Numbered from the stretch's first letter, positions 1-33,949 are shown. The stretch is DNA of 56,547 nt from Rozella allomycis CSF55 (GCA_000442015.1 KE561174.1:1-56547), one strand, 5' to 3'. Notes: generated by a model not told the origin, from the sequence alone. Numbers and translations are program-made.

Positions 1-5
1 TTCTA

Positions 6-40
6 TTTTTAATGCGAGCGAAGCGAGTACAACCGCTAGT
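6..40 (+). mobile_element. Helitron-like terminus (GC-GAA-GC hairpin + CTAG-T), copy 1
   Basis: tttttaatgcgagcgaagcgagtacaaccgctagt, identical 35/35 to 23211-23245 with different flanks. A hairpin shortly upstream of CTAG followed by T is the Helitron 3' end signature. Confidence 0.6.
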
Positions 41-85
41 CATATAACTGTTGAAATACGGTCACTAGGTCAAGAGAGTAAACAA

Positions 86-3000
86 ATGCAATCAAATCGC
101 TTACCTGAAATAAGCCCTTCATCTGAAACGCTAAAGTCTGATAAATTATCTTCAAAGAGCCGCGAAGATGAGTTGCGTGATATTCTTTTGCGAAAGAATA
201 AGTGTTACACCTTGAAAGGTTCGAATTACCAATCAACTAAAGTAGAGCTCTGCAGAGTATCAAGAGAATATCGCCGTTTGCAGCATCCGATATTGCTTGA
301 AAAACAGCGAGAGCTTTGCAATTACCCTATATGTACATCTAGAAATAATCAAAGAAAACCAATGAAGCCTCCCCTCAGATTGCCTTCCATCAAAGCGAAA
401 TATGGTGACGAGGAGCCTCTTACGGATGATCAACGTTATCAAAAAACCTTTAAGCATATATTTGTAGAGACTGTTGTAGAAAAGAAAAACAAAAACATAA
501 AATTCCCAAAAAGTAAATATTGCATACCAAGGAAAGATATAGAAGAACCCCAATTATTAGATCCTACACTGTTTATATCCAATGAAGACGAGAAATTGAT
601 AAAGGCTATTGATTCTGCAGCGAACAAAACAAAGGAAGATGAACTGAGAGTAACAAATATCATTCATGATAAGTAGGCGAGTACCAATTTTTTCATTCAT
701 TCTATTCGACGCAATATAAAGGTTAATTTCCCCGACACTGCAAAGAAAGGAATACTCAAGTATATTTCTAAAGAGCTCTTGACTGACCATCCATTACTTG
801 CAAATACCCTCCTTGATGAAATTAAAGATGAATACATTGAAAGTGAGACTCAGTCTGCTTTAAAATTTGTTTTGAAGAATCCCAATGTTAATACTGAACA
901 GCATGTTCAATCCTTGTTTTACGTCAAGGAACACGTCCCAACACTCCCTGCGCCCTGGCATGAATCTTTTGTCGCAAACAAAAAACGGCTTGAAGGTCAC
1001 CTGATGATTGGACATCCCGCGATGATAAGAATTCTTGAATTGAGCGGTGTTGTTGATCATATAAGACTATGTGATACTCATGAAATTTTAAAATCTGCTC
1101 AGAAGCTTCGTTTGACTAGCTTCAAATCTATGGTTTTAGTTCAGTCTGAAGTTTGCCGCGACCGACTTGTGAATGGGTAATTTACTATTTTTCTTATTTA
1201 AAAGATGGCTAAAGACTGTGATTGAAATTTTGTCTTCATTTTTCATGCCTGAAAAGAAGAATGAACGGGCTAAGAACATGAGAGTTTTTAGATGTGCCAC
1301 TGCATTTGTGCAAATTCAAATTCGCAGTTTGATTTTAGATTCTATAGATAGATATTGTTCCATTTTTGATGATATTGAAAAGAATCCCCACTTTTTTTTA
1401 AAAGTATTTGAATGTGAAAACCAAATTGCTTGTGAACCTAGGATCGAAGATGTTGAAGCCGCAATATTGGAAAGTATTGATATCATGTTGACCACAGTGG
1501 ATTCCTTGCCATCTTTGTATTACAGTGTTAGTGTTAAGCCAAACGAGACAGAAGATACTCTATCTCTTGTAGATGAAGATATTAAGATTACTATTAATGA
1601 CGACCATGTAGAAAATGTGAAGCAAATATTAAAAGAAAAGATGAAGTTTGGTCATTCGAGTATTTTGAAATACTTTGATACTTTCGAATCCTATAAATTT
1701 TTGTGCAGCAATGGACTTCAAGATGAAATTGCTGAATTTTTCAAATTTAGTCATTCATTTGAAGAATTATCAATGGTAATATGTGATATATATTGTGTTA
1801 GCAAATTGAAAAGTATAGGAATATGCCAAATGAGATCTATTCGAATGCAAGAAATGTAACGATACCCTTATTTCATGTGAACATGGAAGAATATTTCAAA
1901 TACTTATCCGATCGTGCGATTTCAATATCTGATCAATTTTTATCAAAGATGATGCAGGACAGCATTGTTAAACAAAAAGGGTAAGAAGTAAAATTCAGTT
2001 GAATAAAGAATATGCAAGAGATTTGAGAATATCCAAGATAGGGCATTAAGAACCCCAGAAACATTTAAAGAAATGGCTGATCTGATGACTTTTATGGAGC
2101 ATGTAAAGAATGTTGAATTGCCAAGTTTGAATGAAGAACTTGAAGAAGCAAAGAGAAGATTCCTTTATATAATCAATCTCGGATTTTTGACTGAAGAGAT
2201 TGTCGCTTTGAACACAGTAACATTCACATGGCCAATGCGACTTCAACCAGTGCTTGATCGCAATGAAGAAATCTTACTGAGCGCGAGAAGGCAGAATGAA
2301 AAATTGTTAGAAGAGAGAAGAAATAAGTTTTTGGAAGAATTAGAAGAACTTGAAAGTCAAGTTGTGGAGCTTGAAAAGGTGGAAGATTTTGATGAAATGC
2401 AGTTTTATGTGAAGAAAGTTCAGGGGATGATGAAACAGCTTGTTAGCGCTCAGGAAACGATTGCTGCTTTTAACAAAGAAGAAGGATTGTTTGGATGGCC
2501 TTTAACAGATTACCCTAAAAGAAATGCAATTATTGATAAATTGGAGCCTTACAATCAGTTGTATTCTGCAGCGGTGTCATTTCAAAAAGCTAATAAGAAA
2601 TGGATGGATGGAAATTTCGCTGAATTAGATCCACAAAATATTGAAGATGAGTTAGATTCTCTTAGAAGAGAAACCTTTAAATTGGCCAACATTTTAAGTG
2701 ACGCCCCTGCTCCTAGGAACATTCTTGCGATGACGAAACAAAAGATTGAAGAATTTTCAGTTAATTTGCCAATGATAAAGATTTTGTGCAATCCTGGAAT
2801 GAGAGAAAGACATTGGATCAAACTGTCTCAGATTTCCAACATAAACTTGAAGCCAGATGCAACCGCTTCACTTCGCAAGTTTCTTAAGATGAATTTAGAG
2901 AAATTTATTGATAGTTTTCAAGAAGTGAGTGATTGTGCCAGCAAAGAATATTCACTTGAAAAGGCTTTGACTAAAATGAAAGGAGAATGGGACCCAATAT

Positions 3001-6000
3001 TGTTTGTATTGAAGCCTTACAGAGAAACAGGAACGTGTGTGATTGCAGCTGTAGATGATGTTCAACAGCTCTTGGATGATCAGATTGTTAAAACACAAGC
3101 CATGCGTGCATCGCCATATAGCAAACCGTTTGAACAGGATATTAAAACGTGGGAACAAAAACTATTGCTTACACAGGAAATAATTGATGAATCGTTAAAA
3201 GTGCAAGCGACCTGGCTTTATTTGGAACCAATTTTCAGTTCAGAAGATATAATGAACCAAATGCCAATCGAAGGCAAAAAGTTCAAACAAGTTGACGCGA
3301 CTCGGAGAGAAGTTATTAAAGTAAGATCATTAAAAATGTTGAGATAAGACATTTGAAGCACAAGGGCAGGTTCTTAAGGTTGCCGATATTCCTGCATTGC
3401 TCGATGAACTAAAGGGCTGCAATAACTTTTTAGAAATAATTCTAAAGGGCTTGAATGATTATTTAGATGCAAAGAGATTATTTTTTCCAAGAGCTTTCTT
3501 TCTTAGTAATGACGAGGTAACAATTGGAATCAAATAATTATAGCTTTTGAATATACTCAGTCAAAGCAAGGATCCAAGAAGAGTTGAACCGCATTTAAGA
3601 AAATGTTTTGAGGGAATTGCATCTTTGGATTTTGATGAACAGCTACAGATTGGTGCTGCTTTGAGCTCTGAAGGCGAGAGATTACAATTCGAATCTAAAG
3701 TTACCACAGCCGATGTAAAGGGAGCAGTTGAAAAATGGCTTTTGAAGGTGGAAGCAGCCATGCTGGCTAATGTTCGCATAGTTATCGAAAAAGCATTACA
3801 AGCATATAAAACAACTCCAAGAGAACAATGGGTTCTTGATTGGCCCGGTCAAGTTGTTTTAGCCGTCGGCCAAATATTCTGGACGGCAAATGTTGAAAGG
3901 GCAATAAGCGGCGGTGGCAAAAAAGGTCTTGAAGAGCTTCATGCTCGATTGACCAGCGAATTGAATGATGTCATCAAGCTGGTTAGAGGAAACATATCAA
4001 AAATGGCCAGGATGACATTAGGCGCACTAGTGGTTATTGATGTGTAAACATATTTTGATTTTATAAAAAGACATGCAAAGGATGTTGTATATCAATTGAT
4101 GCAAGAAGGCGTCAAGGACGTTAATGATTTTTCGTGGCTTGCCCAGTTGCGATACTATTGGGAAAACAATGACGTTTATGTCAAAATGATAAATTCTACT
4201 GTTAAATATGGATATGAATATTTGGGAAACACTAGTAGACTTGTTATTACGCCGCTTACTGATCGTTGTTATCGAACATTGTTTGGAGCACTTCAGCTAA
4301 ATTTAGGAGGTGCGCCCGAAGGCCCAGCAGGCACAGGGAAAACAGAAACAGTGAAAGATTTAGCGAAAGCTATTGCCAAGCAGTGTGTTGTATTTAATTG
4401 TAGCGATGGGCTTGATTATCTAGCAATGGGAAAATTCTTTAAAGGTTTGGCGGCATCAGGAAGCTGGAGTTGTTTTGATGAATTTAATAGAATTGATTCT
4501 GAGGTTTTGTCTGTAGTCGCCCAACAGATTTTGGTTATTCAAAGGTCTGTAGCTGCGAAATTGGAGAAGATTGTGTTTGAAGGAACTGAAATTAATTTGA
4601 AGCAAGGATGCGCAGTGTTTATTACGATGAATCCTGGTTATGCTGGTAGATCTGAATTGCCTGATAATTTAAAGGCACTGTTTAGGTCTGTAGCTATGAT
4701 GGTAATAGTTTTGGAAATTGTTGAAAAGGTGCCCGATTATGTTTTGATAGCTGAAATAACTTTATACTCTTATGGATTCATTGAGGCGAGAAACCTGGCA
4801 AGAAAGATAGTGGCGACATACAAACTCTGTTCTGAACAACTTTCATCGCAAGATCATTATGATTATGGAATGAGAGCGGTTAAAAGTGTTCTCGTAGCTG
4901 CTGGAAATTTGAAGCAAAAGAGTGGCAACTTATCAGAAGAAATAATAGTTCTCCAAAGTATCATTGACGTCAATTTACCTAAATTTCTTGCACAAGATGC
5001 TGAATTGTTTAAAGGAATCACTTCAGATCTATTTCCAGGTGTTAAATTACCAAAATTAGATTACTCATTATTTGACGAAGCATTAAGATCGAATTGCAAG
5101 AAATATAATTTGGAGCCAACACCGTATTTTCTAGAAAAAGCTATTCAAGTGTATGAAATGATGTTGGTGCGTCATGGATTCATGCTTGTTGGCGAACCGG
5201 CTGGCAAGACAAGTTTATACAAGGTTGTTGCTAATGCCCTAACAGATTTATCTAATGCTGGTCATGAAGAGTACCAGAAAGTGCAGTACAAGATTATCAA
5301 TCCCAAGTCCATAACACTCGGTCAGTTGTATGGGCAATTTGATCCCGTGTCACATGAATGGCAAGATGGGATTTTATCAGTGACATTCCGCTATTTTGCA
5401 TCTATGAACACTCCCGAACGCAAATGGTGCATTTTCGATGGCCCAGTTGATGCAGTCTGGGTGGAAAACATGAATACTGTGTTGGATGATAACAAGAAGC
5501 TGTGTTTGATGAGTGGAGAAATTATCCAGTTGACCAATACGATGAGTTTGATCTTTGAAACAAGAGACTTGTCTGTAGCTTCCCCTGCGACTATTTCAAG
5601 ATGCGGGATGGTTTATTTGGATCCAGAGTCTTTAGGCACTGAACCGATGCTGAAATCGTGGCTGTCTGTTTTGAATATTCCAAATCAAAGTAAAGAAACG
5701 CTGGAACATTTGATCCAATATTTTGTGAAAGATTGTGTTCATTTTGTGAAAAAGAATTGTAAAGAGCTTTGCATCACTTCTGAATTGAATTTGGTGAAAT
5801 CGTTTGTAAATTTGATGGAAACGCAGTTGACAGATAAGACAAAAGTAGATTTAATTGGCATTTATTTTAAATTTGTGTAAGTTTATATTTTATTGATGTT
5901 GTAGATTCGCAATTGTTTGGTCTATTGCCGGTTGTTTAGATACAGAGAGTCAGAAAAAGTTTGACGAGTTTTTCAAAACAAAGCTGCAAAAGGCTGTCGA

Positions 6001-9000
6001 TGACAATTTAATGCATTTAATGGTGCTTCCAAAAGAGGACGAGTCATGCTTTAATCTGGTGCATAAAGAAAGCCAAGGATCGTGGATGTGGAGACCCTGG
6101 TCATCATTGATCGATCCATCTTTTAATATTCCCAATAATGCCAAATATTCGTCTATTACTATTCCAACAAAGAATACAGTCAGATATAGTTATTTATTGA
6201 AAACATTGATAGAAAATAAGAAACCTTGTTTAATTACGGGCCCCACAGGTAATTATTTTCAACAGGGTTGAAAGGGACTGGCAAGTCAAAGTACATAATG
6301 AATGAATTGATGTCGCTGCCTACCGATCAGTATGATTCTACAGTGATAACATTTTCGGCGAGAACGAGCGCCAACCAAACGCAGGACATAATCATGTCAA
6401 AGCTGGACAAGAGAAGAAAGGGAGTCTATGGGCCTCCGATGGGCAAGACGTCTCTAGTGTTTGTTGATGATTTGAACATGCCGACCAAGGAGCGCTACGG
6501 AGCGCAGCCGCCCATTGAACTTTTGCGACAATTTATAGATCACGGATACTGGTACGATCGCAAGGAGATAACCAAGCTGGAGTTGACTGATGTGTTATTG
6601 CTGTCAGCGTTGAACCCGACTGGTGCGTATGACAAGGTGACGTTACGGTTCCTGCGACATTTCAATATGCTGAGTGTGAATCCATTTGATGATCAAACGA
6701 TGCAGACAATATTTGAGCGTATCTTGCAGTGGCATTTTGCGGGCAATGGGTTTGTGGAGAGTCTGCAGATGTTTGTGCCAAAGATTGTGCAGGCGACTAT
6801 TGAGGTGCATAAGCGTGTTTGTGTGAATCTGCTGCCGACGCCTGAAAAGACGCATTATACGTTTAATTTGCGGGATCTTGGCAAGGTGATCCAGGGGATG
6901 ACGTTTGCCAAGGGCAGCGAGTATGTGAGTGAGCGGGGTGTGATGCTGTTGTGGCTGCATGAGGTGTATAGGATCTACAATGACCGGCTGATTAATGTAG
7001 GGGATAGGGAATGGATGTTTGACCAGGTGAAGCAAGTTGTTGTTGATGTTTATAATGTGCGAGTTGAGGAGATTATGGAGACGCGGGAAGTTGAGTGTTC
7101 TGATTTGTGTGGGATGATGTTTGATTTTGTGCCTGATGAGAGTGGGCAGAAGAGCTACAAGGTGGTGAGATCGCAGCAGGGGTATTTGGATATGCTTAGC
7201 CGACAGCTTGAAGATTATAATAATATGAATAGGAATAGAATGAACTTGGTCTTGTTTAGATTTGCGCTGGAGCATGTTGCTAGGATTCATAGGATATTGA
7301 AGTTGCCTGGTGGGAATGCGTTGCTTGTTGGATTGGGCGGCAATGGACGCAGCAGTTTGACGCGGCTGGCGGCGTTTGTAGCTGGCTATGATTTGTTTAC
7401 GATTGAGCTGACGAAGAGTTATGGCAAGGAGAATTGGAATGATGATATGAAGAAGATGATCATGGCTGCTGGAGTTGAGAATAAAAAGTGTGTGTTTCTG
7501 TTTAGTGATTCGCAGATAAAGGATGAGTCGTTTATAGAGGATGTGAATACGCTGTTGAATGCGGGTGAGATACCGAATTTGTTGGCTAGTGATGAAAGAG
7601 CGAATGTGATTGAGAGGGTGAGGGGTGATGCGCTTAGTGAAGGAGTGAGTGAAGTTGGTGGAGTTTATAACTATTTTGTGGAGAGAGTGAAGCAGAATCT
7701 GCATATTGTGTTGTGTATGAGTCCTATTGGCGATTCGTTTAGAAACCGGTTGCGGCAGTTTTCTAGTTTGGTGAATTGCACGACGATCAACTGGTTTGAC
7801 TCGTGGCCTGGTGATGCGTTGAAAGCAGTAGCGTTTAGGTATTTTGAGAGTGTTGAGCTGGAGGGCGGATTGAAAGAAAAGATTATTGAGATGTGTCGAA
7901 TGTTCCATGAGAGTTTGGGAGTGTTGTCTGAAAAGTATATGGCTAATCTGAAGCGGCATACGTATGTGACGCCCACGTCGTTTTTAGAGTTGTTGTTGCT
8001 GTATAAGAATCTGTTGAAGAAGAAGAGAGATGAGATATTGGAGATTAAGAATCGATATGATGCTGGATTGGAGAAGCTTGATTTTGCTGCGAACCAGGTG
8101 GAGAGAATGAAGAAAGAGATTAGAGAGCTGCAGCCGCAATTGAAGAAGACTTCGGAGGAGACTAGTTTGATGTTGAGTAAGATTGAAGTTGAATCTAAAG
8201 AAATTGAGACAACGAGAAAGGTAAATGGAAAGATGATTAATGTTAATTAGGTAATTGTGAATTTATTTGAATGAAAATAGGTAAACTTTGATCATTAGTA
8301 CTTTAAAATAGGTAAACACTTTTAATTCAACTTTAATAGGTCGTAGCTGCAGAGGAAATGATCGCAGAAAAGAAAGCGAAAGAAGCAGAAGCAATCAAGG
8401 CAGAATGCGAGAGTAATTTAGCAGAAGCATTGCCATTACTGAATGCAGCATTGAGTGCGCTTGACACATTAAAGAAGAGCGACATTGATCTAGTGAAAGC
8501 GATGAAGAATCCCCCGAGCAATGTAAAACTTGTGATGGAGGCAGTGTGTGTGATGAAAGACTTGGCGCCTATGAGAGTGCCTGATCCGAGTGGCAGTGGC
8601 AAGATGATAGCGGATTACTGGAAGACGTCGTTGAAGATGATATCTGATGCGCATTTCCTAGATTCACTGAAGAGCTATGACAAGGACAATATACCTGTGC
8701 ATGTTGTGAAGAAGATTCGGCAGACGTATTTGCCGGATGCTGATTTCAAGCCAGAAAAGGTGAGGAACGCGTCTAGTGCTGCTGAGGGGCTGTGTAATTG
8801 GATTATAGCGATGGAGGCGTATGATAGGGTGGCGAAGATTGTGGGGCCAAAGCAGGAGGCGTTGAAGGCTGCTGAGCAAGAGTATAATGAGACTATGGTA
8901 GGGTTGGAGGCGAAGAGGGCTGTGTTGAGGGTACGAATATGTTTAGTGTGTGTTTGTAGGATGTGTTGGAGCGATTGGGTAATCTGCAGACTAGTTTGGA

Positions 9001-12000
9001 AGCGTTGACTATAAAGAAGCAGAATTTGGAGTTGCAAGTTGGCACGTGTGAGAAGCAGTTGGACAGAGCGGAGAAGCTGTTGGGTGGATTGGGAGGTGAG
9101 AAGAGTCGATGGACGATGGTTTCGCAGCAGCTGCAGACGGCGTACCATAATCTGACTGGCGATGCGCTAGTGTCTGCTGGAGTTATTTCGTACTTGGGTA
9201 GATGATTTTAATTGTTGTTGAGAAAGGACCGTTTACTAAATCGTATAGGATGAATGTGATTGAAGAGTGGATTGCCGCTGCGAAAGAAAAGGGGATCCCG
9301 ACGAGTGCCGAGTTTTCGCTTNGAGTGGATTACCGCTGCGAAAGAAAAGGGGATCCCGACGAGTGCCGAGTTTTCGCTTGGCAAAGTGTTGGGCGATGCT
9401 ATCCAGGTAATGAAATGATGAATTGAGTATTTTATAGATAAAGTCGTGGATCATGGCGGGACTTCCAACTGATCAATTTTCTATAGATAATGCGATAATA
9501 GTGCAGAATGCGAGGAGATGGCCATTGATGATAGATCCGCAGGGGCAGGCGAATAAGTGGATAAAGAATATGGAGAAGAGTAATGGGCTGCAGGTGATAA
9601 AGTTGACTGATGGAGATTATATGAGGACGCTGGAGAATGCGATACAGTTTGGGATTCCGGTGTTGTTGGAGAATGTTAAGGAAGAGATTGATCCTGTGTT
9701 GGAGCCATTGTTGCAGAAGTCTACATTTAAATCTGGTAAGTATCAAGTAATCAACTTAACATAGGTAAATAATATCATTTAAATTAACATAGGTAAGTAA
9801 ATAGTTTAAAAATTTTACAGGTGGAGTGGTTTGTATAAAGTTGGGGGATAATGTGATTGAATATTCTAAAGATTTTAGATTGTACATTACAACTAAACTG
9901 TCTAATCCACATTACTTGCCAGAGATTTCTACAAAGATATCATTGTTAAATTTTATGATAACAAGAGAAGGATTAGAAGATCAGTTGTTGGGAATAGTTG
10001 TAGCGAAAGAGAGGCCAGAGTTGGAAGAGGAAAAGAACCAGTTGATATTGCAGAGCACAGAGAATAAGAAAAAGTTGAAAGAGATTGAAGATAAAATATT
10101 AGAAATATTGTCGTCGGTGCAAGGGAATATTCTGGAAGATGAAACAGCTGTGAATGTATTGTCATCTTCTAAAATGATATCGAATGATTTGGAAGAAAAG
10201 CAAAAGATTTCAGAAGAAACTGAAGGAAAGATTGATGAGACTAGAGAGAGTTATAGATCTATTGCAGAGTTTTCATCAGTGTTGTTTTTTTGTATAGCTG
10301 ATTTGTCTAGTATAGATCCAATGTATCAATATTCCTTAAACTGGTAAGATTGGATTATTAAAGTTAAAATTTAGGTTTGTTGAATTGTTTATTTCGAGTA
10401 TTTTGCAGTCTAATAGATCTAATCAAGTGAAAAAGAGATTGAAGAATTTAGAAGGACATTTTCTGTATTCTTTGTATTGCAATGTGTGTAGATCATTATT
10501 TGAAAAAGATAAATTATTGTTTTCATTTCTATTGTCAATTAATATTCTCCTCAACCAAAAAGAAATTAAAATGGAAGAATACCAATTCCTAATGACAGGG
10601 GGTGTTGGAATAGAAACAACTGATGAGAACCCAGCGAGTTGGTTGAGTGACAAATCATGGCAGCAAATAAACAAATTGAGTCAATTGGAATCATTTAAAT
10701 CATTCAAGAGTGATTTCAAGCCAAATGAGTGGAAACCATTTTACGATTCAAATGAGATTTCTCATTATCCAGGCAAATGGAATTCATTGAATGAGTTTCA
10801 AAAGTTGTTGATTTTGAGATGTTTGAGACCAGAAAAGATTATTCCAAGTGTGCAAGAGTTTGTTAAAATAAAGTTGGGTATGTGATCTAGTTGGATTTGA
10901 TAGGGAATAAGTTTATTGAGCCGCCCACTTTTGATTTGGCTAGTATTTTTGATGATTCTAATAATAGAACGCCACTTATATTCATTCTATCACCAGGTAA
11001 GATGTTAAAGAGTTGAAATAATTTAGGTAAGATGTTAAAGAGTAGAAATAATTAGGTAATTCTGTCTCATTAATTAAATATTAGGTAATTCTATCTCATC
11101 AATTAAATAAAGGCGTCGATCCAATCGCTTCATTGATAAAGTTTGGTCAAGACAAGGGCTTCACCAACAACAAATTCCAATCAGTGTCACTTGGTCAGGG
11201 TCAGGGTCCAATAGCCACTCAACTAATAAAAACAGGATTGAAAGAAGGCAATTGGGTTATTCTGCAAAACTGTCATTTAGCGACCAGTTGGATGTCCACT
11301 TTGGAAAAGATTTGCGATGACATTCAAACTGCATCTGTTCATAAAGAGTTTAGATTGTGGTTGACTTGTTATCCTAGTCAAATGTTTCCTGCGTCTATTC
11401 TTATGAATGGAATCAAGATGACTAATGAACCACCAAAGGGATTAAGAGCGAATATTTTAAGGTAATCAAAAGGGAGTTTGTTAACATTAGGTAATCAAAA
11501 GGTTAAGTAGTTAATAATAGGTAATTAGAAGTGGGATAGTTAACCTTAGGTAATTAGAAGAGAGTTGATTAACATTAGGTAATCAAATGTTCTAAATTCT
11601 AAATCAAAGGTCCTATTTGAGTGATCCAATTGCCGATGAAAACTTTTTCAAGAAATGCAAAAAACATTTGGAATTTGAAAAACTTTTATATTCTCTTTGC
11701 TTCTTTCATGCTCTAGTTCAAGAAAGAAAAACTTTTGGTCCACTAGGTTGGAATATCCCCTATCAATTCAATGAATCTGATCTACGTAACTTGCTAATAT
11801 TAATCTTTAATAGGCATTAGTATAAGACAATTACAAATGTTTTTAAATGAATATGATGAAATCCCATTCAAAGCTCTATTATATCTAACGGGTGAATGCA
11901 ACTATGGCGGAAGAGTCACCGATGATTGGGACAGAAGAACTCTACACTCCATTCTCTCTCAATTCTACAACCCACAAGTCCTAGAAGACCAATCATACCT

Positions 12001-13158
12001 CTACACTCTAAATCAAAACTACATTGTCCCGCCAAAAGGCAACTACGATTCCTACCTCCAGTTCATCAGAAACCTACCACTCAATGCATCCCCCGACGTC
12101 TTTGGCATCCACGAAAACGGCGAAATATCTAAACAACTCGCCGAAACAAAATCGCTCTTCGACTCTCTCCTCCTCACCACCGAAAACATCTCCTCGCAGA
12201 AAAACTCTGCCTCCAACCTGCTGGAAAACGTCGTTTCCGATATCCTCGGCAAACTAACCACGCCCTTCAACATTGACCTCGTGCAGCGCAAGTTTCCAAT
12301 CTCATACAACAATTCTATGAACACTGTGCTCGTGCAGGAAATGATCAGGTACAACAAACTCATCTCGGTGATCCACTCCAGCCTCGTTAATGTCGAAAAG
12401 GCGCTTAAGGGGCTGATTGTCATGTCGAGCGAGCTGGAGGATATTTGCAAGAGTATACTTATGGGAAAAGTGCCGGTGCAGTGGGCATCCAAATCGTATC
12501 CGTCCCTGAAGCCGCTTGGAAGCTATGTGAATGATCTGCTCAAGAGGATAACGTTTTTGAATGCGTGGTTTGAGAATGGTGCGCCGTTGGTTTATTGGCT
12601 GCCTGGGTTCTTTTTCACGCAGTCTTTCATCACAGGTAATGCAGAGAGTATTTAGTTAATCTAGGTAATAAAGAAAATATTTAGTTTAATTAGGTAATAG
12701 AGAGAAAATTTAGTTAATTAGGTGCATTGCAGAATTACGCTAGAAAATATACAATTCCAATAGACGAACTATCCCTAGACTTTGAACTAGTCTACAACGT
12801 CACAGAACCACCAACAGACGGCGTCTACGTCAACGGTCTCTTCCTTGAAGGCGCCCGCTGGTCCAAAACTAAACACTGTCTCGCTGAATCATATCCCAAA
12901 GAATTATACGACGCCCTCCCAACTATTCTCTTCAAACCAATCAAATCAACTGAACTCAAACCGAAAAGTGTTTATGAATGTCCAGTGTACAAGACTAGCG
13001 AGAGAAAAGGTAAATGGGTTGTTGAAGATTGAGTAGGGACGCTGAGCACTACGGGGCATTCCACTAATTATGTGCTGACACTTAGGCTGCCGACTGATAA
13101 GCAGGAGAAACATTGGGTTAATGCGGGAGTTGCTGCTTTACTACAATTAGACGATTAA
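86..13158 (+). CDS. Axonemal dynein heavy chain, single-headed inner-arm class (DNAH3/7/12-like), multi-exon
   Basis: AAA1 [48 protein letters not shown], stalk/[28 protein letters not shown]-terminal [13 protein letters not shown]...LLQLDD*. ORF pieces are joined by 26-31 nt GT-AG introns and five stacked intron arrays; N-join at 9322. Confidence 0.96.
8221..8339 (+). other. Stacked mini-intron array 1 (4 units: 8221-8250, 8251-8280, 8281-8311, 8312-8339)
   Basis: Each unit is GTAA...TAG (30/30/31/28 nt). Removing all four joins TTRK|VVAAEE in frame. Confidence 0.9.
9736..9820 (+). other. Stacked mini-intron array 2 (3 units: 9736-9764, 9765-9792, 9793-9820)
   Basis: Each unit is GTAA...AG (29/28/28 nt). 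Removal restores [14 protein letters not shown]. Confidence 0.9.
10997..11112 (+). other. Stacked mini-intron array 3 (4 units: 10997-11026, 11027-11055, 11056-11084, 11085-11112)
   Basis: Units are 30/29/29/28 nt; units 1 and 2 are near-identical, as are 3 and 4. Removal restores the conserved [11 protein letters not shown]. Confidence 0.92.
11462..11609 (+). other. Stacked mini-intron array 4 (5 units: 11462-11490, 11491-11520, 11521-11549, 11550-11578, 11579-11609)
   Basis: Units are 29/30/29/29/31 nt, all GTAAT...YTAA...AG. Removal restores [14 protein letters not shown]. Confidence 0.92.
12636..12721 (+). other. Stacked mini-intron array 5 (3 units: 12636-12664, 12665-12693, 12694-12721)
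   Basis: Units are 29/29/28 nt and mutually homologous (GTAAT...TTTAGTT(T)AAT...TAG). Removal restores [14 protein letters not shown]. Confidence 0.92.
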
Positions 13159-13221
13159 CAATGGAGAAACAATAAATAGAACTTGAAATTCATTGCATTA
13201 TTTATTTTTACATCTCATCAA

Positions 13222-15187
13222 TCATGATTGCCTTTTAATTCTTACTGCCAAACAAATAAATCCAATAAAGCGCACCACACATATAAAAACAATCATATTC
13301 ACTACCATCCCACTATACGAAACTTCTTTTTCAACTCCGAATTCCGTCAAATACTCACTCCCCTCAACCTTCACCACACAATGCCCGCCAACCACATCCC
13401 GTTCCGCACATTTAAACAAGTGTCCTCCAAACTGCGAATACAATATCGCCTTGTACGCAAACGCCATTGGATTGATATACTCTATCCATCTTAAATACAC
13501 AGGCACTCCACTCAATTTAACTTGTTCAAACACACAAATTACATTACCGAAAAACCCGTTGAAGAGTGTAAATATCACTTGCACGATATTCGCTACAATG
13601 TTGCACGTCTGCACCTTGCCACACAGCGCGCCAACAGCAATATACAAAGACACAGATGACAGAAGCATCAGCATCATGAACAGCTGGAACACGCCAAACT
13701 TGTATTCATCTAATGGAAGCCCAATCATAAAGTAGATGATCGTTGACGCTATACATGAGCAGATACAGTGCACAGGGATCTCAGCAATATTGCGCGCCAT
13801 GTAAAATGTAGCGATTGAATACATCCCCGAAAGAGATTCGCGCTTCAGTGTTGCCAGTTCAATGGGGAATAAAAGAACAACATCGAATGGCAAGTAGGAA
13901 ATTAGTACAACGGAAAAGGATAGCACACTGAATATGTCGCGAATAGAGGCTGTTGTGTCGTCTAGCTGGTAAAACACTGATCCTATTAGAAGCGGAATCA
14001 AGGTGCAGAAACATAGTTGCGTCCACACGGCTGACGGATCTTTGAGCTTGAAAATAAAGGCGCGCTCGAGCAAAATCAAAAATTTGGTGAATGACGAATT
14101 GCTTAAGAGCGGTGGTAACGCCGGCAGCTTTTCTATATGCTCTGTTTTCACATTCTTGAGTCGTTTTTGGAATGAAGTGACCAGTCTTTTTTGGACGATG
14201 GATTCAGAGTTTCCACGCAATTCAATATCATCCTTGTTTGCAACAATGATATCGTGCTCATCGGAATTGGTTGTATCAAGAACATCAAGAAAAAAGTCAG
14301 CGGCGTTTTCATAAAGTGGGACTTGCAATCCATTTTCACTGTAAAAGTCTATGGCGTCTTTGAACTTGCCAAAGAATACTGTGCGGCCTTTACTCATAAT
14401 CATCAGATTGTTGATTAAATTTAGAATTTGGATGCGCGGTTGATGAAGGGTAACGATAATCGCCTTACCCTCCTTGGCAAGATTCTCGAGAATTTTCATG
14501 ACTTTTAAAGAATTCACGGCATCTAATCCTGATGTAGGCTCATCCAACAATAAAACATCGACACCTGATATTATCTCATTAAATTTGCAAATTGAATTTA
14601 CTTGGCATCCAATCATTAAACGTCGAAGCTCACCGCCAGAAATTCCTTTCCCTTTCATCTCTGATTTATGAATTTACTCATTTCATCTCCGATTCTTACA
14701 TTCGCACAACTACTTAATCCAAGCTTCTCCAATGTTTCATCAACAATCTGCACAATTTTCTTCTTTGAATGAACTCCAGACAGCTTCAATCGGGCTATTT
14801 AAATTAAATATTGCAAGGAACCTTCATACATCATTGTCTCACGGACAGTTAAACATGAAAAGTACTTGACATTTTGATACACGTACCCAATTCTCCTCTT
14901 GATGTCATTAGGATATGGTTGCCCGAAATACTTTTTGGATCCTTGAATTGTAAATTGATGCAAATCACGATCCGCTAGAATATTTAACAATGTTGTCTTG
15001 CCACTGCCGCTGAATCCAAGGACTATTCCATACATTAATTTATCGTACTTGCCAAGATTTCACCGGGTAACACATAGCCACTACATTTTCTTAGGATTGT
15101 AATACTTTTTGATTGCTTTTTCTTCAAAATGGGAACAATTGACTTGGATCTTATTTCACCTTGGACGTTAAGATCTTGCCATTCCAT
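13222..15187 (-). CDS. ABCG (white-like) half transporter, multi-exon
   Basis: Walker A GFSGSGKTT, signature ISGGE, LLLDEPTSGLD, LHQP, then a C-terminal ABC2 membrane domain. The start (MEWQDLNV) was read by hand. Confidence 0.9.
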
Positions 15188-15319: not shown

Positions 15320-16130
15320 ATGTCAAAGCAAACTGCCAAACCAGTCGATGAGTTTCGAAATGGTATTAAAGAAAAGGCTCTAGATACAGTACACAAAATT
15401 TTCCCAGCCAAAGTGGAACATCTCACAAGGTTGATCAACGTAGTTTTGAAATATTTTTTTCGAGCTAGGATATGTACAAATATGATTCTTTGCCATTTGT
15501 TTCTCAAATGAACGAAGAAGATAACAAGATTAAAAGGATAAAGATGTATCACGAACTTGATAAAATATATGATGGTGAGCACCTCATATCCAAGGTATAG
15601 AAATTTGTGTTTAGTGAAAAGAGTATTGATGAAATGCTTGGTCAATTGAAAAATGAAGTATCAGAATTAATGGAATATGTTAATTGTGTCAAGATTTTTA
15701 TTCAGCTCAACATTCCGGTAAACTTCGTTGTTATTCTTTGAAAGAAAATCGAAGATGGAAATAACTTTGGCGTTCAAGTACAAGAAGAGGCTGTTAATGA
15801 GTTGAGCAGAGCTGAAGAGTCTGGATTTGCATTGCTTGACACCATCAACAAGTATTTTATGACGAGAGGAAAAGTGTTAAGCAAGGTATAAATTGTACAT
15901 TCAAATAATCAGGTATTTAAATATCCAGACAATCAAGACTATAAGAGGGGTATTAAAGAATTGGATGAGAAACAAATATTTTCAATCAGACTGTCCATGG
16001 TTGGTAAATACATTATCTTTATGTAATTATAGATCTTAGAAACAATTATGTTATTTTATACGACATGATTCAAAAGAATATTGATAAAATCATGAAACCT
16101 AGATCGTCGAATGCTGCTGCATTGTATTAG
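15320..16130 (+). CDS. Proteasome activator PA28/11S (PA28gamma-like), multi-exon
   Basis: Spliced translation has the activation loop IQLNIPKIEDGNNFGVQVQEE, KYP..DY and C-terminal KNIDKIMKPRSSNAAALY*. Confidence 0.9.
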
Positions 16131-17619: not shown

Positions 17620-19615
17620 ATGAATTTTTCTTGGAATACAAAGTCTTTGAAGAAGCCTAAAGTTAGCCTTTTTGAAGATGATGAAGAAGAAGATAAAATG
17701 AATCTAAAGAAAAAAGTAAAATTGGAAGACAAGAATAGCGACAGTGATGATGTTGACCTGGATAAATATCTAAACGAGATGGAATGCCAGGCAGAAAAGG
17801 ATTTAAAAGACGCTGGCAGTAATCAAAATATTGTAATTACATTTGGTCCATGTAACAGATAAGACGGGATGATATTGAAGAGGAGGACTTTGTCGAGAGC
17901 TATATTAATGAGCTTGAAAAGAAAGGAATAGCCAATTTAGAAAATATGTAATAATTAATGCGAAAAATTAAAAAGTACAGAAGAAGATGCTGAGGAGCAA
18001 GCAAAGTTAAAGGCAAAAGTAGTAGAGCCACTCCCTCCAGTGGATCATTCATCTATTGAATATTTGCCAATTAGCAAATATTTTTACAGGGAGCATGAAG
18101 ATATTAAAAATCTTGATAAAGAAAAAGTAGAATCACTTCGAAGAGAAATGGATATTCATGTTTTGGGGACAGACGTTGCAAAGCCTTGTATATCGTTTTC
18201 GCACTTCAATTTGGACAAGGAATTGTTGAATGTCATTTCAAAGCAGGGATACTCACAACCTTCTGATATTCAAAAACAGGCAGTTCCAGTTGCCCTTGAG
18301 GGACGAGACATTATTGGGATAGCCAAGACTGGGAGTGGCAAAACAGCGGCTTATTTATTACCATTAATGGTCCACATTATGGATCAGCCAGAATTAGAGC
18401 AAAGTACTTTTTTGAGAGTGTTTTAAGTAGATGAAGGGCCAATTGGATTGATTTTAGCACCAACAAGAGAACTGGCAATTCAGATATACAAAGAAGCGAA
18501 AATATTTGCAAACGCGTATAAATTAAAGTAAAAAATATATGAACTGAAGACAAGGGTATCTTGTGTGTTTGGCGGTGCTTCGAAGCATGAACAGTTTAAG
18601 GCACTACGACAGGGATACGTAGATATCTTAATTGCTACTCCTGTAAATGAATTAGATTATTAAAATAGGGCCGTTTGATTGACATGATAAAAATGAAAGC
18701 AACAAATTTCAAAAGAGTTTCATTTTTAGTGCTAGATGAAGTTGATCAAATGCTTGATTTAAACTTTGAGCCACAAGTCATGTCAATAGCGAATAATGTA
18801 AGACCCGATAGGCAAAGTAAAAACTAAGAAAAAAACATAAATTAGCGTTGCTTTTTAGTGCGACATTTCCTGAAAGAATCCAAAATATTGCAAGGTCATT
18901 AACAATGAATCCTGTCACAATAAGTATTGGAACAGAAGGATTAGCGAATGAAGATATTGACCAAAAAATTGTTTTACTCAAAAATGAAGAAGAAAAGAAT
19001 AAATGGTTAATTAAAGAGTTGGAAAATTTTCTTTGTGATGGAAGCGTTTTGATTTTTGTGGCAAGAAAAGCATTTACAGAAGAATTATCAAAATTGTTGA
19101 CTGATCAAAGGTACCCTTGCATTGTTATACATGGTGACTTGAATCAAATAGAAAGAGACGCTGCCATTAAACAATTCAGATCGAATCCTGTTTCTGTTTT
19201 AATAGCAACAGATGTGGCAGGTAATATTATTTTAAGTGTAAAATAGCGCGCGGGCTTGATATTAAGCACATCAGAAACGTTGTCCATTACAATCCAGCCA
19301 AAGATATAGAGACTCACATTCACAGAAGTGGTCGAACTGGAAGAGCTGGTAAAAATCTTCTCTTTATTTCATCAAGGTGCTAAAGGAACTTCTTTTTGCC
19401 TTTTATCACCTAGTGATGATCGATTTGCTGGAGAATTAGTGAAAATGTTAGAATTGGCTGGAAAAGATGTTTCTAAAGAATTAATGAATCTTGCAATGTC
19501 GGTAAAATATAATTCTTATTGTTATTAGAATTTCAAGTTCAAAAGGGCGAGATTGGGCATTTCAACTGGGCCGAGAAGTGGTCAACGAAGATCAAAGAAA
19601 CACAAAGGATTTTGA
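17620..19615 (+). CDS. DDX42: DEAD-box RNA helicase DDX42 (SF3b125)-like, multi-exon
   Basis: DHSSIEY N-terminal motif, Q motif, [58 protein letters not shown]. Confidence 0.8.
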
Positions 19616-23314: not shown

Positions 23315-25786
23315 ATGTTTTGCTTTGCATGGCTCATCTTCTGGACTGATTTAATTCTAGGGTTTTCAACAGATTACAGTAACATTTATTAGTATTTTAC
23401 AATGGTTCATTTATTAAACAAGTTGGATCATTTCAGAACTCACAAATATCCCAAATTGGAGCAAGAACATTGTTGGAAAGTTCGCAGGATGGTCAAACAA
23501 TGATTATAAACCTCGGAGAAAAGTAATATAGTTTAAAATCGTTCATAGGGCATTTCAAGTTTACTTGAAGCCTTCCAATATTGTTTCTCCCGATTCCAAT
23601 ATTCGCAACTCAATTGATCATCTACAATTATTGCAGGGATCGGTTGTAGGGCATGAAAATGATTCTACAGTTAGTATGACTATAAATTCAAAGGACAATT
23701 CATTTCATGGGAGGATCGTTATTGGTGATGAAGTGTATCACATCGACACGGTAGAATTCAACTCTACAAGCCATATCGTAAGTTACCAACCAAAAGATGT
23801 TCCTCAAAATGATTTCGGAAGTTGTAATGCGGGTGAAAATGAAGTGTTTCAAGGAAGAGAGAGGATTGCTGATTTTGTTCCTCAGCCTGTGCCGAGATCA
23901 GTAAATATTGGAAAGAAATGTATGATGGCTACTGTTGCAGATTATTCGTTTTATCAAAAATGGGGTGAACATACAATTGATGTCATACTTTCTGTTATGA
24001 ATGATGTTGATGCAATATACAAAAGAGACATTGATGTTTCAATCGGCGTCAAGTATATTTATATTGCCCAGAATAACGATCCTGTTATTTCTGTTAATCA
24101 AACAGTTTTGTCTAATTATTTGGCTAGCGTTCGAACACTCGTTGAAAACAATCAACTTCCGGACTTTGACAAAAACGATTACTGTCTGGTTAATGTACTT
24201 TCACATACATCATTTCAGGGGCTATTAGGTTTAGCTAACGTAAGATATCACTGAATCAAATTATAGTTGGATACACTATGCACATTCGGACCTGGAGTTT
24301 CCATCTCTACAGATTCATTAAATAATTGGACAAACTTAAGATCTGTTTTTGTAACGACTGTGGCCCATGAAATCGGACATAATTTCGGTTCTAGACACGA
24401 CACGCAAAATACAGTAAATCCACCTGATTGCGACCCGACCTATAAATACATAATGTACCCAACAGCTCAAGCGCCATCCATTAATTCGCAGACTTTTTCT
24501 TCGTGTTCCATAAGTTCAATGCAATCTGCCGTTGAATCAACTGGGTCTTGCTTTGTCTTCAGCAATGAATCCTCTTCTCTGAATTGGGATAATTACACCA
24601 ACTTTTGGGACCAGTATCCAGAAGATCAATGCAGGGTAAAGCATTTAATGATTCTTAAAAGAATCTATTTGCACTTGGTAAACTACCAAAGCTATCGGAC
24701 AACGACTATTGGACAGACTGCTTAAAGACACAATCTCCTAGCGATGTTTGTAACCTTGTCTGCACTAAAAATTCACAGCAAAATATCCAATGTACAAAAT
24801 TTTTAAATTCAGATCCACTTTTATCATCTCAATATGTTCCGAAAAGAGATGGCACTCCTTGTGATCCCTTGGACAGGAACAAAGTGTGCATCCAAGGTTC
24901 CTGTGTTACCGATACGAGAACAAACCTGTGCGATCCAAATCTTCAATGCTGTGATTCCTTTGGTAATAAAATGAGTAATGGCATGATTTGCAACATTGTG
25001 CAAAACAAAACGATCGTTAAATCTTTGGGATGTAGATTGCCTTATGATACTTGTGATGGACAATCTCTATTATACTGTCCTCCAAGAACTGCTGTCCCGA
25101 AATCTTCCTGTTCATGTAATAGCAATGGAAACAACTGCAAGGGTATTTGCGGAGATGCTCAGTATTTGGGTTCCTGTTTGGANATGATACTTGTGATGGA
25201 CAATCTCTTTTATACTGTCCCCCAAGAACTGCTGTCCCGAAATCTTCTTGTTCATGTAATAGCAATGGAAATAACTGCAAGGGTATTTGCGGAGATGCTC
25301 AGTATTTGGGTTCCTGTTTGGATAAACAATCAAAATCTCTATTGGGTTACAATTCTACCTTTAATTCAACATATTCACCTTGTTCTTCAGTGTCTTGTCC
25401 TACTGGTACTGCCTGTATTTTGGTTACAGGCGATCCATATTGTGCCCCTATTCTTTCAAGTATTTTATCTTTCTTTACAATTATTAGCTTCATGCAAATA
25501 CAGGTGTAATAATGACAATTTAAATGGACCTGGCTACCCTTGTTCATGTATGCCCACTTGCACTTCAAATTCCAATTGCTGTTCGGATTATAGTGATCAA
25601 TGTGTTGCTCTACCCTCTGCTTTAAGTTTGGATGGAATCGAAGAAAGGATGTTGAGATTTTGGTCAAAATATCAAACTTATATTATTTATGGGGGCGCAG
25701 GAGTTGCTGTCATTGCCGTTGGTTTAATCGCTAGAAGCGTCATTAAATCACGAGCTCGCTCTAGAATGGAAAATAATAAAGTGTAA
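23315..25786 (+). CDS. Membrane-anchored ADAM/reprolysin (M12B) metalloprotease with Cys-rich, disintegrin-like and somatomedin-B-like domains
   Basis: Signal peptide, prodomain (FHGRI...YHID), zinc motif HEIGHNFGSRHD with Met-turn YIMYP, DGTPC...VCIQGSC, CCD...CDGQS..CP, SCKYRC..CSC...C..CCSDY...C, then a TM. Start is approximate; N-join at 25183. Confidence 0.85.
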
Positions 25787-26832: not shown

Positions 26833-28217
26833 ATGAAAATTGTTTTCTGCACATTTCTACTGGCTAGTGTTTTCGCTCACAAGAATGTATGGGAAGAATT
26901 TTTTGATTTCAAAGATAACTATTTGGTAGATAATAATTACTTTCCTCAAACCAAAGCTGTTTTAAAAGGGCCTGAGATTATGTATAAACCCGACAAAGAT
27001 ATCTTGAATGGGAATATATGGCATATTATATCAAGAAAAATATCTCTGGACGATTTTTTAAAGCTTCAAGTTGGAATACCTTGGTTTAGAAGCATGATGC
27101 CAACCTTACCTATTCATCATGATGACTTGATTGAATTTATTACATTCTGTTTAACATTTGACAAAAAGATTAAAAATAATAGACTGGGAATATGTCAAAA
27201 GCATCTGAATCATATTTTCAATAACCCCAATATTGTCAATATGATAGCAATGTCTCCAAAATTAATGATAGATTCTTTCCATGCTAGTTCACCTGTTTCA
27301 TTAAAATATTTGAGGAGAAAATTTAAAGTTTCCCATTTATCAGCTTGGATTATCGCGGGTATGAAAACATCACAAATTTATGATATACTTCACAAATTTC
27401 TGTCTTCCAATTTGTCAATAACAAACGATGTATTCGTTTTATGTTTATCGAGAGGTATTGATCTAAGTCTTCTACTTAAATTGTTTAAAAGTGATGTCTC
27501 TCAACGGGGAGTTGTCAAACACTTCTTGTTTGCGAAACTTCATAAATGGGGTTGGCATATGAATTTCGATTATATCACGCAGATGTTGATACCATTAATT
27601 GCCTTTTATAAACCACATAATTTTTTAGAATTTGAATCCCACTTTCTCAAATTATCGATAGGTATGGAAAGCCTTCATCAAAATCGTCATTTTTTCATGT
27701 CAATCTCATTATTGTTCGACAACGTCTCTATGTTTAAATTCATTAACAAACACTATACCAATAGATCTTTAACGATAGATTTAATACATTATAGACAATT
27801 TCTTTTAAAGCCTTCAACTGTTCATNATGTTATAAACCGCATAATGTTTTAGAATTTGAATCTCACTTTCTCAAATTATCGATAGGTATGGAAAGCCTTC
27901 ATCTAAATCGTCATTTTTTCATGTCAATCTCATTAATGTTCGACAACGTCGCCATGTTTAAATTCATTGACAAACACTATACCAAGAGATTTTTAAAGAT
28001 AGACTTAATACATTATAGACAATTTCTTTTAAAGCCTTCCACTGTGCATCACTTTTTAAATTCTGCAGCCGAATCATCGTTCAGTATCTATATTCATGAA
28101 ATTAATCGGCATCGCACTTCCAAAAACTTTAATATTACAAAGAAAACCAAAAATGTTATAATGACAAGGCGATCAACGGTTAGGCATCAGAAAATAAAGG
28201 CGATATTGAATTTGTGA
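26833..28217 (+). CDS. Secreted hypothetical protein, intronless; split by an N-joined duplicate segment
   Basis: Signal peptide MKIVFCTFLLASVFA. ORFs 26812-27852 and 27888-28217 overlap in sequence across the N at 27826. Confidence 0.65.
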
Positions 28218-29972: not shown

Positions 29973-30863
29973 TTAAAGATAATAGGCCACGAGAAAAGAT
30001 ATCAAGAACGATATGAAATAGGCGGGCGCTGCAGAGTTGCTGTCTGATGAAATACCTCCACCATTACCCCCGTTTGAGGTTCGTGAGTTTGGAGATATCT
30101 TTGATATTGGATTATTTGTAGCAGGTGGAAGACATGTATTAGTGCCATTTGAGTTTGCCACTATCTTGAATAGCTGCGAGTTTCCTCCGAATTGTTCAGT
30201 ATAACCAGGTTGACTTGATGGAGGATTATATTGCGTAAAAATGCTGACCAAATATATTTTGCTATCTGAAGGAGTAACTGTGCTAGGAACTTGGAACGTT
30301 ATGCCTTGGACTTTCGCCTCTACTGATCTTGTAACAGTGTAAACAGCTGAATTTCCTCCATTTTGGTAGATATGCACCGCCAAATTCGCTGGCATTTGGG
30401 GTACTCTTGGATAGTCCCACGATATCGTGACGTTTCTACATACTTCCCAGGTTGTATCAGGAGTTGGACTGAGTATTTTAAACTGCTTCAATGGTTCACT
30501 TCCTGTATTAGTTATAATAAAGTATTCGCTGTAGGTAGAAAATGCAGCTTCCGTCTTTCCAGCAACAGAGCCCCAAATGTAAAGACGATAAAATGATGAT
30601 GTTTCCAAATTAGTTGGCACAGTCATCTCATAAGAGTTTAATGATGTACTTATTGATCGAACGACAGAAACCGGAACGTTCATTAAATTATCACGATTAA
30701 TAAGGTCAATATTGAGTTGGGAGGTGACTTCACCAGTGGTTTCCCATTGAATCAATATAGTAGATCCTGTAGTATAGTTTCCACCGATTGGATTAGTGAC
30801 TGTTATGTTTCCAAAGGAAAATACCTTTGATAATAGCAAGAAAAAGCAAATGAGCCAGACCAT
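29973..30863 (-). CDS. GPI-anchored protein with two Kre9/Knh1-like (Ser-Thr-rich GPI family) beta domains
   Basis: Signal peptide; two repeats of the form (I/L)xxP...(G/C)xx(I/V)xIxW...VP....Y....S..F.I; S/G/N-rich linker; hydrophobic C-terminus. Confidence 0.75.
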   Translation of the reverse strand: MVWLICFFLLLSKVFSFGNITVTNPIGGNYTTGSTILIQWETTGEVTSQLNIDLINRDNLMNVPVSVVRSISTSLNSYEMTVPTNLETSSFYRLYIWGSVAGKTEAAFSTYSEYFIITNTGSEPLKQFKILSPTPDTTWEVCRNVTISWDYPRVPQMPANLAVHIYQNGGNSAVYTVTRSVEAKVQGITFQVPSTVTPSDSKIYLVSIFTQYNPPSSQPGYTEQFGGNSQLFKIVANSNGTNTCLPPATNNPISKISPNSRTSNGGNGGGISSDSNSAAPAYFISFLISFLVAYYL

Positions 30864-32549: not shown

Positions 32550-33949
32550 TTATTGCGCATTAAAATATGGTAACTTTTTCACTTGTGATATTGTTGGTCT
32601 CTTCCGATAATCTGTAGTGAGAATTGATGAAATTAATTCTTTCAATGAGCTGTTTTGAAAAGATTCAGGAAATGGCTTATACTTGCCGCTTATTATTGAC
32701 AATTGCAGTCTTGGAGGGAAAGAGTCAGAAAAGGGAAGATTACCTGTGGCCAAAGCATAAAATACAACTCCTAACGACCAAACATCAGACGCTTTAAGTC
32801 TGTCAAACACATTTCCATCTATTGAAAGTCTGTGCGAAGAAAGAGATACCTCTTCAGGGGGACTGTAGGCCAAGGAGCCAGATGCTAAACATATTTTCTC
32901 AGAAGAGCAAAGGGCAAGGGATTCTGAAAGACCAAAATCACATAGCCAAATATGATAGTCAAAGTCTACAAGAATATTCTCTAATTTAATATCACGATGC
33001 GCTACATTTGCGTCTTCGTGCAAGTACAAAATTGCATCAGTAAGTTGATATATGACATCTTTAAGTACATTATCATCCGAAAGAGCACCATTTTTCATTA
33101 AAAATTGAAGAAAATTGCCTTTAGCAGCAGCCGGACTTACTGCGATTTTTGTTTCCTCTGTGACAAGAATTTCTATCAGAGGCAAAATGTTTGGGTGATC
33201 CAATGTCTTCCATATGTTAATTTCTTTTTCAAAAATATTCATAGAGGTCTCGTCCGCTTTTTGAACGACCTTTAATGCCACTTTTACTGACATATTTGAG
33301 TCCTTATCATCTGCCGGTAGTTGTGTGAATGCTTCTCGTACTTCTGAGAAAGCGCCAGTTCCTATTACCTCACCGATAACGTAGCCTTCAACTATTTCTC
33401 CTTTCTGGAATGAGAACGAAGTATTTTTCATTTCTGCCATTCCCGATAAAAATTCAACTGCGGGACTTTGAGGACAAGAAGAGTAAGAAATTGAAGAGTT
33501 TACAGATTTTGAACGATGATGATAACGGGATTTCCGATCCCCAAATTCATGAGCTTTAATGCTATTTTTCCTTAACCTGTTCGTTATGAAGTCTCTATTT
33601 TGAAACGTATAATTAGTTGTGCCGCCATCAATAAATTCATTTTTTATGGTGTTTCTGGTGGGTTGAAGCATTATACCTAATGCAGATGTTCTGACAGGTA
33701 ATTTTCCTTGAGTATTGATTTTTTCCAAGGAAAGAGGTCTTGCTAAAAACAAAGATTCTTCGTTATTTCGTAATTCGAAGTCTAAAAATAATTTTTCTAC
33801 ATTTTACTGTCTTCCCTCCTAGCATATTGTGTAGATTCAGATTCCTCCTTGTGAGGTACGTCTGACTGATTCAATTGAAGTTGATCAAAAGTTTTACTGA
33901 TTGTTTGTGTTTGAATTTCGTCATTTGATATCCTCGATTCATCATTCAT
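32550..33949 (-). CDS. Ser/Thr protein kinase, CAMK group (fungal Nnk1-like)
   Basis: IGTGAFSEV, VALK, HRDIKLEN, DFG, GSLAYSPPE, DVWSLG; SPAVEFLS motif before the kinase domain; one 5' intron. Confidence 0.88.

Follow-up and report, generated by a model that had tools for sequence, protein, structure and literature searches.

Here, we propose, as the reading that we think probable, that five long introns in an axonemal dynein heavy chain gene of Rozella allomycis CSF55 (Rozellomycota, Fungi) consist of complete minimal introns repeated in tandem like a minisatellite, and that they are removed in multiple steps through their internal splice sites. The gene lies in a stretch of 56,547 nucleotides (nt) of this genome (GCA_000442015.1, KE561174.1:1-56547), and this whole stretch is what we call the window. 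An earlier reading, made from the sequence alone, had pointed to a candidate recursive splicing system in the region 8221-12721, the 3' part of this large plus-strand gene. We draw a distinction between how the arrays arose, for which a tandem-duplication origin is well supported, and how they leave the transcript, for which piecewise splicing over zero-length exons would, to judge from the sequence, be the best-supported mechanism.

Anatomy of the arrays and of the gene that carries them

The gene and its arrays, which were located by direct sequence reading together with a chain search, are as follows.

2..13155, plus strand: axonemal (inner-arm, DNAH7/DNAH3-like) dynein heavy chain gene of R. 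allomycis, 5' end open at the window edge
8221..8339, plus strand: array 1, four abutting mini-introns of 30, 30, 31 and 28 nt (119 nt in total), old
9736..9820, plus strand: array 2, three abutting mini-introns of 29, 28 and 28 nt, old, final acceptor CAG
10997..11112, plus strand: array 3, four abutting mini-introns of 30, 29, 29 and 28 nt, two near-identical pairs
11462..11609, plus strand: array 4, five abutting mini-introns of 29, 30, 29, 29 and 31 nt, mosaics of one another
12636..12721, plus strand: array 5, three abutting mini-introns of 29, 29 and 28 nt, mutually similar

Unit lengths thus span 28-31 nt and array lengths 85-148 nt. All 19 units start with GTAA and end with AG, both intact in the primary sequence, and they abut without overlap: each of the 14 internal junctions reads TAG/GTAA (the slash marking the boundary), with zero bases between units. 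A YTAA motif stands close to the 3' end of 16 of the 19. If a single unit were retained, 18 of the 19 would place a stop codon within the unit and the remaining one would shift the frame. The sequence-only reading had described five introns that split exactly into 4, 3, 4, 5 and 3 units of the form GTAA...AG, joined as AG/GTAA and usually with a YTAA-like motif near the unit end; on each of these points the direct reading and the chain search agree with it.

The identity of the gene is given by its protein matches. The translated exon 6253-8220 is 99% identical to the protein P0001 (source name 'hypothetical protein ROZALSC1DRAFT_28837, partial [Rozella allomycis CSF55]'), and after that one its best matches, at about 46-54% identity, are dynein heavy chains of the axonemal DNAH7/DNAH3 type. 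In a tblastn comparison, the 3111-amino acid (aa) fungal dynein P0007 (source name Coelomomyces lativittatus) matches colinearly over 2883-13155. The exons stay open under the standard code, which together with the Rozella protein match speaks against a ciliate source. Besides the five arrays, the gene contains 16 single introns of 26-31 nt.

Removal of the whole array leaves a gap-free colinear tblastn alignment with P0007 at all five places, where the high-scoring segment pairs meet at query positions 1723/1723, about 2139, about 2517, 2633/2633 and 2967/2966. The public model P0001 joins its exons across array 1 and ends exactly ahead of array 2, whose splice junction (...KS/GGVVC...) agrees with P0007. 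With P0007 colinear and P0001 contiguous over array 1, the earlier claim that taking out all units restores dynein in frame holds. It is the intron that repeats, with no duplication of coding sequence.

Such arrays exceed what chance would give. The regular expression (GTAA N20-26 AG){3,} matches at five places on the plus strand and none on the minus strand of the 56-kilobase (kb) window, and the same unit pattern finds no two-unit array in the window. In 100 first-order Markov versions of the window, with both strands scanned, the mean count is 0.0 for at least three units and 0.21 for at least two. Looser GT..AG chains at 15852-15937, 30505-30562 and 33831-33880 (plus strand) and at 27143-27046 and 12022-11965 (minus strand) were taken as chance because they lack GTAA starts and are irregular in length, and because the ones examined fall within coding frames or on the strand opposite them.

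The arrays are also genuine DNA. Contigs from all four of the public DNA runs compared (X1, X2, X3 and X6) cover them, with a 5422-nt contig of X6 spanning arrays 1-4 and a 5346-nt contig of X1 spanning array 5. An assembly artefact is therefore ruled out, and the confirmation in genomic reads that the sequence-only reading had called for is supplied at the level of contigs.

What sets the arrays apart is the uniformity of the ordinary introns around them. The window yielded 32 single introns, each of 26-31 nt (mean 27.4 nt), in line with the earlier statement that ordinary introns here are almost all single units of that range. They were found by open reading frame (ORF) bridging; the 16 in the dynein gene agree with P0001 or tblastn boundaries, and the other 16 come from ORF bridging alone. 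The search turned up no intron between 32 and 84 nt in the window, where gene models outside the dynein gene are incomplete. Sixteen ORF-bridging candidates of 43-191 nt were rejected, none being periodic or convincing on reading; one long candidate held an ordinary 26-nt intron (19221-19246). In one report, two introns of R. allomycis S23 are likewise termed 'short (~30 nt)' (PMC6349667).

Compared with the single introns, the array units are longer (mean 29.2 against 27.4 nt; Mann-Whitney p 9e-6), more uniform in their donor (GTAA in every unit against 26 of the 32 single introns), and far more often provided with YTAA near the 3' end (7 of the 32 single introns have it). The array units are thus a separate, stronger-signal subclass of intron.

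The base composition of the dynein gene is itself a mosaic (window 1-13800, plus strand). Guanine-plus-cytosine (GC) content is 0.43-0.51 in the exons of 6275-9735, with a GC skew of +0.27 to +0.44, then 0.31-0.33 in the exons of 9821-10877, and 0.41-0.45 in those of 11814-13799, where the skew is -0.16 to -0.26 and locally falls to -0.5; the switch from G-rich to AT-rich sequence coincides with array 2. Antisense to conserved dynein exons are stop-free minus-strand frames at 6643-7983, 7671-8246 and 12052-12522 (446, 191 and 156 aa), which are most likely a by-product of skewed composition and not genes.

Origin and turnover of the units

How did an intron come to be repeated head to tail? 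The interiors of the units divide the arrays into two groups. Between unrelated single introns, interior identity averages 0.53 and reaches at most 0.80. Against this background the units of array 1 (0.43-0.62) and array 2 (0.50-0.62) look unrelated to one another. In array 3, units 1 and 2 share 0.91 and units 3 and 4 share 0.86, array 5 stands at 0.77-0.82, and the near-copies of arrays 3-5 as a whole span 0.77-0.91. The earlier assertion that unit interiors have diverged therefore holds for arrays 1 and 2, whereas arrays 3-5 contain near-copies. Since neighbouring units in arrays 3-5 are near-identical, these arrays were duplicated recently. Tandem Repeats Finder (TRF) accordingly reports tandem repeats in them, with a period of 29-30 in array 3, of 29 with 4.4 copies in array 4, and of 29 in array 5; arrays 1 and 2, too diverged, go undetected by it.

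The number of units also varies between DNA runs. Contigs of X3 and X6 carry a five-unit form of array 3, with an extra 30-nt unit behind 10994. A three-unit form of array 4 skips 11511-11568 (58 nt, two units) in contigs of all four runs; its deletion breakpoints lie inside units and share four letters, so that a hybrid unit results. X6 shows the skip at full depth and X1-X3 show it at partial depth, and in those three runs both forms therefore co-occur. At array 5, contigs of X2 and X6 depart at 12674/12715 and pass another TAG/GTAA into a unit foreign to the window. Because forms with different unit numbers co-occur in public DNA runs, unit turnover is ongoing.

The flanks of the arrays bear on the way in which the first copies were made. 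An exon ending in AG precedes 4 of the 5 arrays, compared with 7 of the 32 single introns (Fisher p 0.02), and one opening with GT follows 4 of the 5, compared with 1 of the 32 (p 0.0004). This AG/.../GT context suggests, on sequence grounds, duplication through AGGT microhomology. An ordinary intron of about 29 nt set in exon..AG/GTAA...TAG/GT..exon would have an AGGT direct repeat on both sides, and slippage or unequal exchange between these repeats would add or delete exactly one intron length; once copies exist, the 29-nt repeats would themselves cause whole units to be gained, lost and recombined again. Neither the tandem-duplication origin, nor the flank bias, nor the stronger-signal subclass had been part of the sequence-only reading.

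A different origin would be a mobile or reverse-spliced family of mini-introns, introner-like, that enters AG/GT proto-splice sites and recreates such a site with each insertion, so that copies stack head to tail. We regard this as improbable, even though several observations would fit it: the arrays do sit in AG/.../GT contexts, the units of arrays 1 and 2 are mutually unrelated, array units form a class of their own (about 29 nt, GTAA...YTAA...TAG) unlike the 27-nt single introns, and all five arrays fall within 4.5 kb, where 5 of the 11 introns are arrays against 0 of the 26 elsewhere in the window (hand-calculated Fisher p about 0.001). The pattern of similarity, however, runs the other way, in that neighbouring units are the most alike (0.86-0.91), identity between units of different arrays stays near background (mean 0.55, maximum 0.74), and no unit comes close to any single intron in the window (best interior identity 0.76). 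Moreover, the breakpoints of the array 4 variant inside units point to unequal exchange and not to precise insertion or excision at junctions.

Removal of the arrays and a proposed limit on intron length

In light of the arrays being chains of complete introns, how might they be removed from the transcript? We propose that the spliceosome works over a donor-to-acceptor distance of about 26-31 nt and would recognise each unit as an intron of its own, so that an array leaves through several reactions across zero-length exons. Every excision would regenerate ...AG/GTAA..., and any order would give the identical messenger RNA (mRNA); if splicing is co-transcriptional, a 5'-to-3' order would naturally be expected. 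Incompletely spliced products would be non-coding, a retained unit bringing a stop or a frameshift.

In arrays 1 and 2, all five internal junctions and all seven unit lengths are intact despite interiors at background level, and the keeping of ends and lengths while the interiors look unrelated points to selection on the internal splice sites. A hand estimate puts the neutral chance of keeping 30 junction letters (5 junctions with the 6 letters of AG/GTAA each, decaying at the interior rate) at about 0.55^30, or roughly 1e-8. The stronger GTAA and YTAA signals of the units are what would be expected if they are recognised without exon context. None of the 10 single-nucleotide polymorphisms (SNPs) seen in the arrays among 40 of 213 SNP rows falls in GTAA or AG (hand-calculated p about 0.1). 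Folding contributes nothing that would bring distant ends together: predicted folds of the arrays are no better than those of shuffled sequence (z +0.85 to -1.5), which leaves no structure to shorten them for removal in one step, and Rfam has no match in the window.

The alternative that most needs weighing, which we nonetheless judge unlikely, is that each array is an ordinary 85-148-nt intron, excised at once between the first donor and the last acceptor, with the internal GTAA and AG sites as unused leftovers of duplication. Introns of 100 nt are handled easily by most spliceosomes, the P0001 model annotates array 1 as a single 119-nt intron, and arrays 3-5 are young enough, at 0.77-0.91 identity, for unselected internal sites to have survived. 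Arrays 1 and 2 are where this account meets its difficulty, with internal sites and unit lengths preserved around background-level interiors. In addition, no single-unit intron longer than 31 nt was found in the window, no RNA structure joins the ends of an array, and under intron definition the nearest acceptor, about 29 nt downstream, is the one transcribed first.

Several points weigh against piecewise removal and the length limit, and against the statistics on which we lean. No public run that contains the stretch is recorded as RNA, and one RNA run labelled as this species shares almost none of its sequence words. The evidence on the splicing path consists of DNA contigs and sequence, both compatible with one-step excision, and changes by whole units are expected from repeat slippage under any splicing path and so do not discriminate. 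The argument from selection presumes that the units of arrays 1 and 2 descend from duplicates; if they were unrelated inserted introns, their dissimilarity would be uninformative about age. The SNP test covers 40 of 213 SNP rows. The flank statistic has an n of five arrays, and units within one array are non-independent, which weakens the comparison of length and of YTAA with the single introns. The length limit is based on one 56-kb window with incomplete gene models, in which 16 of the 32 single introns are homology-checked.

Weighing these together, we hold to piecewise removal. The sequence-only reading had a spliceosome limited to introns of about 30 nt take out the units one at a time and in any order, and the sequence evidence (conserved junctions, the length gap, whole-unit alleles, the lack of structure) speaks for it, which leaves this part of that reading favoured and not settled. 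We consider evenly balanced the stronger proposition that the spliceosome of R. allomycis has a hard intron limit of about 31 nt, that introns can therefore grow only by whole quanta, that recursive splicing is obligatory in a short-intron organism, and that gain and loss are polymorphic within the strain.

It had also been suggested that the arrays delay or tune maturation of the dynein mRNA. Developed further, this would make serial splicing a regulatory device that delays or throttles the transcript, for example in the timing of flagellar genes in zoospores. There is circumstantial encouragement for it in the concentration of the arrays in one flagellar gene, and in the fact that n serial reactions would multiply inefficiency while retained units lead to premature stops. 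The units, in turn, recombine in the fashion of minisatellites, co-occurring forms vary in unit number (4 or 5 in array 3, 5 or 3 in array 4), apart from the splice signals the units show no conserved element, and the data link no array length to expression. With unit number varying among co-occurring forms, with mosaic units, and with TRF describing arrays 3-5 as plain repeats, the picture resembles minisatellite turnover, the suggestion is not supported, and we think it more improbable still than insertion by a mobile family. The arrays are probably passengers that the gene tolerates, not a means of regulation.

Comparison with known systems, and other features of the window

One close parallel is the zero-nucleotide recursive splicing of long introns in Drosophila, which takes place at ratchet points (bioRxiv 10.1101/006163; PMC8605326). 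As at those points, an acceptor and a donor are juxtaposed (AG/GTAAGT-like) with zero exonic bases, which holds for 14 of the 14 array junctions, and in Rozella too each excision would leave a usable 5' splice site for multi-step removal. Ratchet points, by contrast, cut very long introns into long segments, whereas the segments here are of 28-31 nt in arrays of 85-148 nt, and the likely cause in Rozella is an upper limit on intron length, not an excess of it. Stepwise removal has been demonstrated in Drosophila, whereas in Rozella we infer it from sequence.

Among fungi, the comparison is with stwintrons and complex intervening sequences, such as those of Lipomyces with abutting donors (PMC7138796; PMC8469720; PMC9024468). 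These are likewise fungal-lineage U2 introns of several units, removed by consecutive standard splicing reactions, as the arrays would be, and small duplications of splice elements have been proposed as their origin. In a stwintron, however, one intron sits inside the donor, branch or acceptor element of another, and since that element comes into being once the inner intron has been excised, the order of splicing is forced (PMC7138796). The Rozella arrays fall outside this definition, since their units are non-overlapping, complete in the primary transcript, removable in any order, and up to five in number.

As for their origin, intron gain by tandem genomic duplication bounded by AGGT has been described (PMC3443670), including a case in a potato gene for RNA-dependent RNA polymerase (RdRp) (PMC4974935). 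In that model an AGGT-bounded duplication gives a precisely spliceable intron and leaves the coding sequence unchanged, and the arrays sit in the matching AG/.../GT contexts. The similar copies that it predicts are seen in arrays 3-5 (0.77-0.91), and arrays 1 and 2 are at background (0.43-0.62). Unlike the classical case, in which an exonic segment is duplicated and one intron results, it is the intron itself that is duplicated in Rozella, iteratively and polymorphically. Like minisatellites (variable number tandem repeats, VNTRs), whose units measure roughly 10-100 nt, the arrays have a 29-30-nt unit, whole-unit variation in copy number, and mosaic or hybrid units from unequal exchange. Unlike minisatellites, their repeat unit is a complete intron, and the old arrays conserve the splice signals and the unit length alone.

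Very narrow intron lengths near the physical minimum, with retained introns leading to premature stops, are shared with the tiny-intron genomes of Paramecium (about 25 nt), Stentor, Nyctotherus and myxozoans (PMC8997360, PMC9505925, PMC2633312). Unlike the tiny-intron genomes listed, that of Rozella is rozellomycotan and uses the standard genetic code. Neither tandem nor recursive introns came up when PMC13644364 and PMC5014332 were searched by term. We found no earlier description of head-to-tail arrays of mini-introns in the literature covered, beyond which a remark on Rozella intron lengths may exist.

If the units are spliced singly, the arrays would be a natural experiment on a strict upper length bound in tiny-intron spliceosomes, and a spectrum of intron lengths quantised at 1, 3, 4 and 5 units, and at no value in between, would mark such a bound. 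They would also take recursive splicing over zero-length exons beyond the long introns of animals, and for the opposite reason. In addition, intron gain by AGGT tandem duplication appears to have happened repeatedly in this gene, where gains and losses of entire introns still segregate, a process rarely caught in the act. There are consequences for annotation as well: gene finders tuned to introns of about 30 nt break genes at the arrays, and those that permit long introns hide the units, as the public model of the dynein gene does.

We also scanned metagenome sequence with the pattern TAGGTAA N21-24 TAGGTAA N21-24 TAGGTAA, which matched at least 118 stretches. Within the matches listed there are at least 130 arrays of three or more units, most of them satellite-like (similar units, no flanking ORFs). 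Among these listed matches, none of 11 arrays inspected makes a convincing case for an array of introns within a coding gene; the 11 exclude loci with open frames on both flanks, such as L022, L091 and L114. A repeat family of 30-31-nt GTAA...TAG units is common to the loci L005 (4330-4511), L021, L031, L043, L105 and L111. It lies outside ORFs on AT-rich contigs, with an internal periodicity of about 15 nt and a conserved upstream flank and last unit, and is a dispersed satellite-like element.

One further repeat inside the dynein gene is of a different kind.

9265..9322, no strand assigned: 58-nt assembly duplicate beside a single N at 9322, an artefact

TRF gives this duplicate a period of 58 with 2 copies at 96%; contigs of all four DNA runs skip it, and P0001 reads across the 9322 region without it. 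Two-copy direct repeats of 30-224 nt, each across a single N, stand at 25044-25322, 27606-28049, 31926-32168, 35501-35722, 41384-41443, 51669-51777 and 9265-9380, with the N at 25183, 27826, 32047, 35611, 41414, 51721 and 9322, respectively. Those other than the one at 9322 look like the same type of artefact and would corrupt gene models.

Just past the 3' end of the dynein gene, where the last tblastn match runs to 13155, a 483-aa minus-strand frame (13222-14673) overlaps a plus-strand frame (13187-13735), in what looks like a convergent arrangement of tightly packed genes. Farther along the window, 15-nt (5-codon) tandem repeats cluster at 47036-47133, 47406-47486, 47699-47736 and 47980-48017, in or adjoining the plus-strand frames 45608-47395 and 47561-48160, which suggests a repetitive low-complexity protein.

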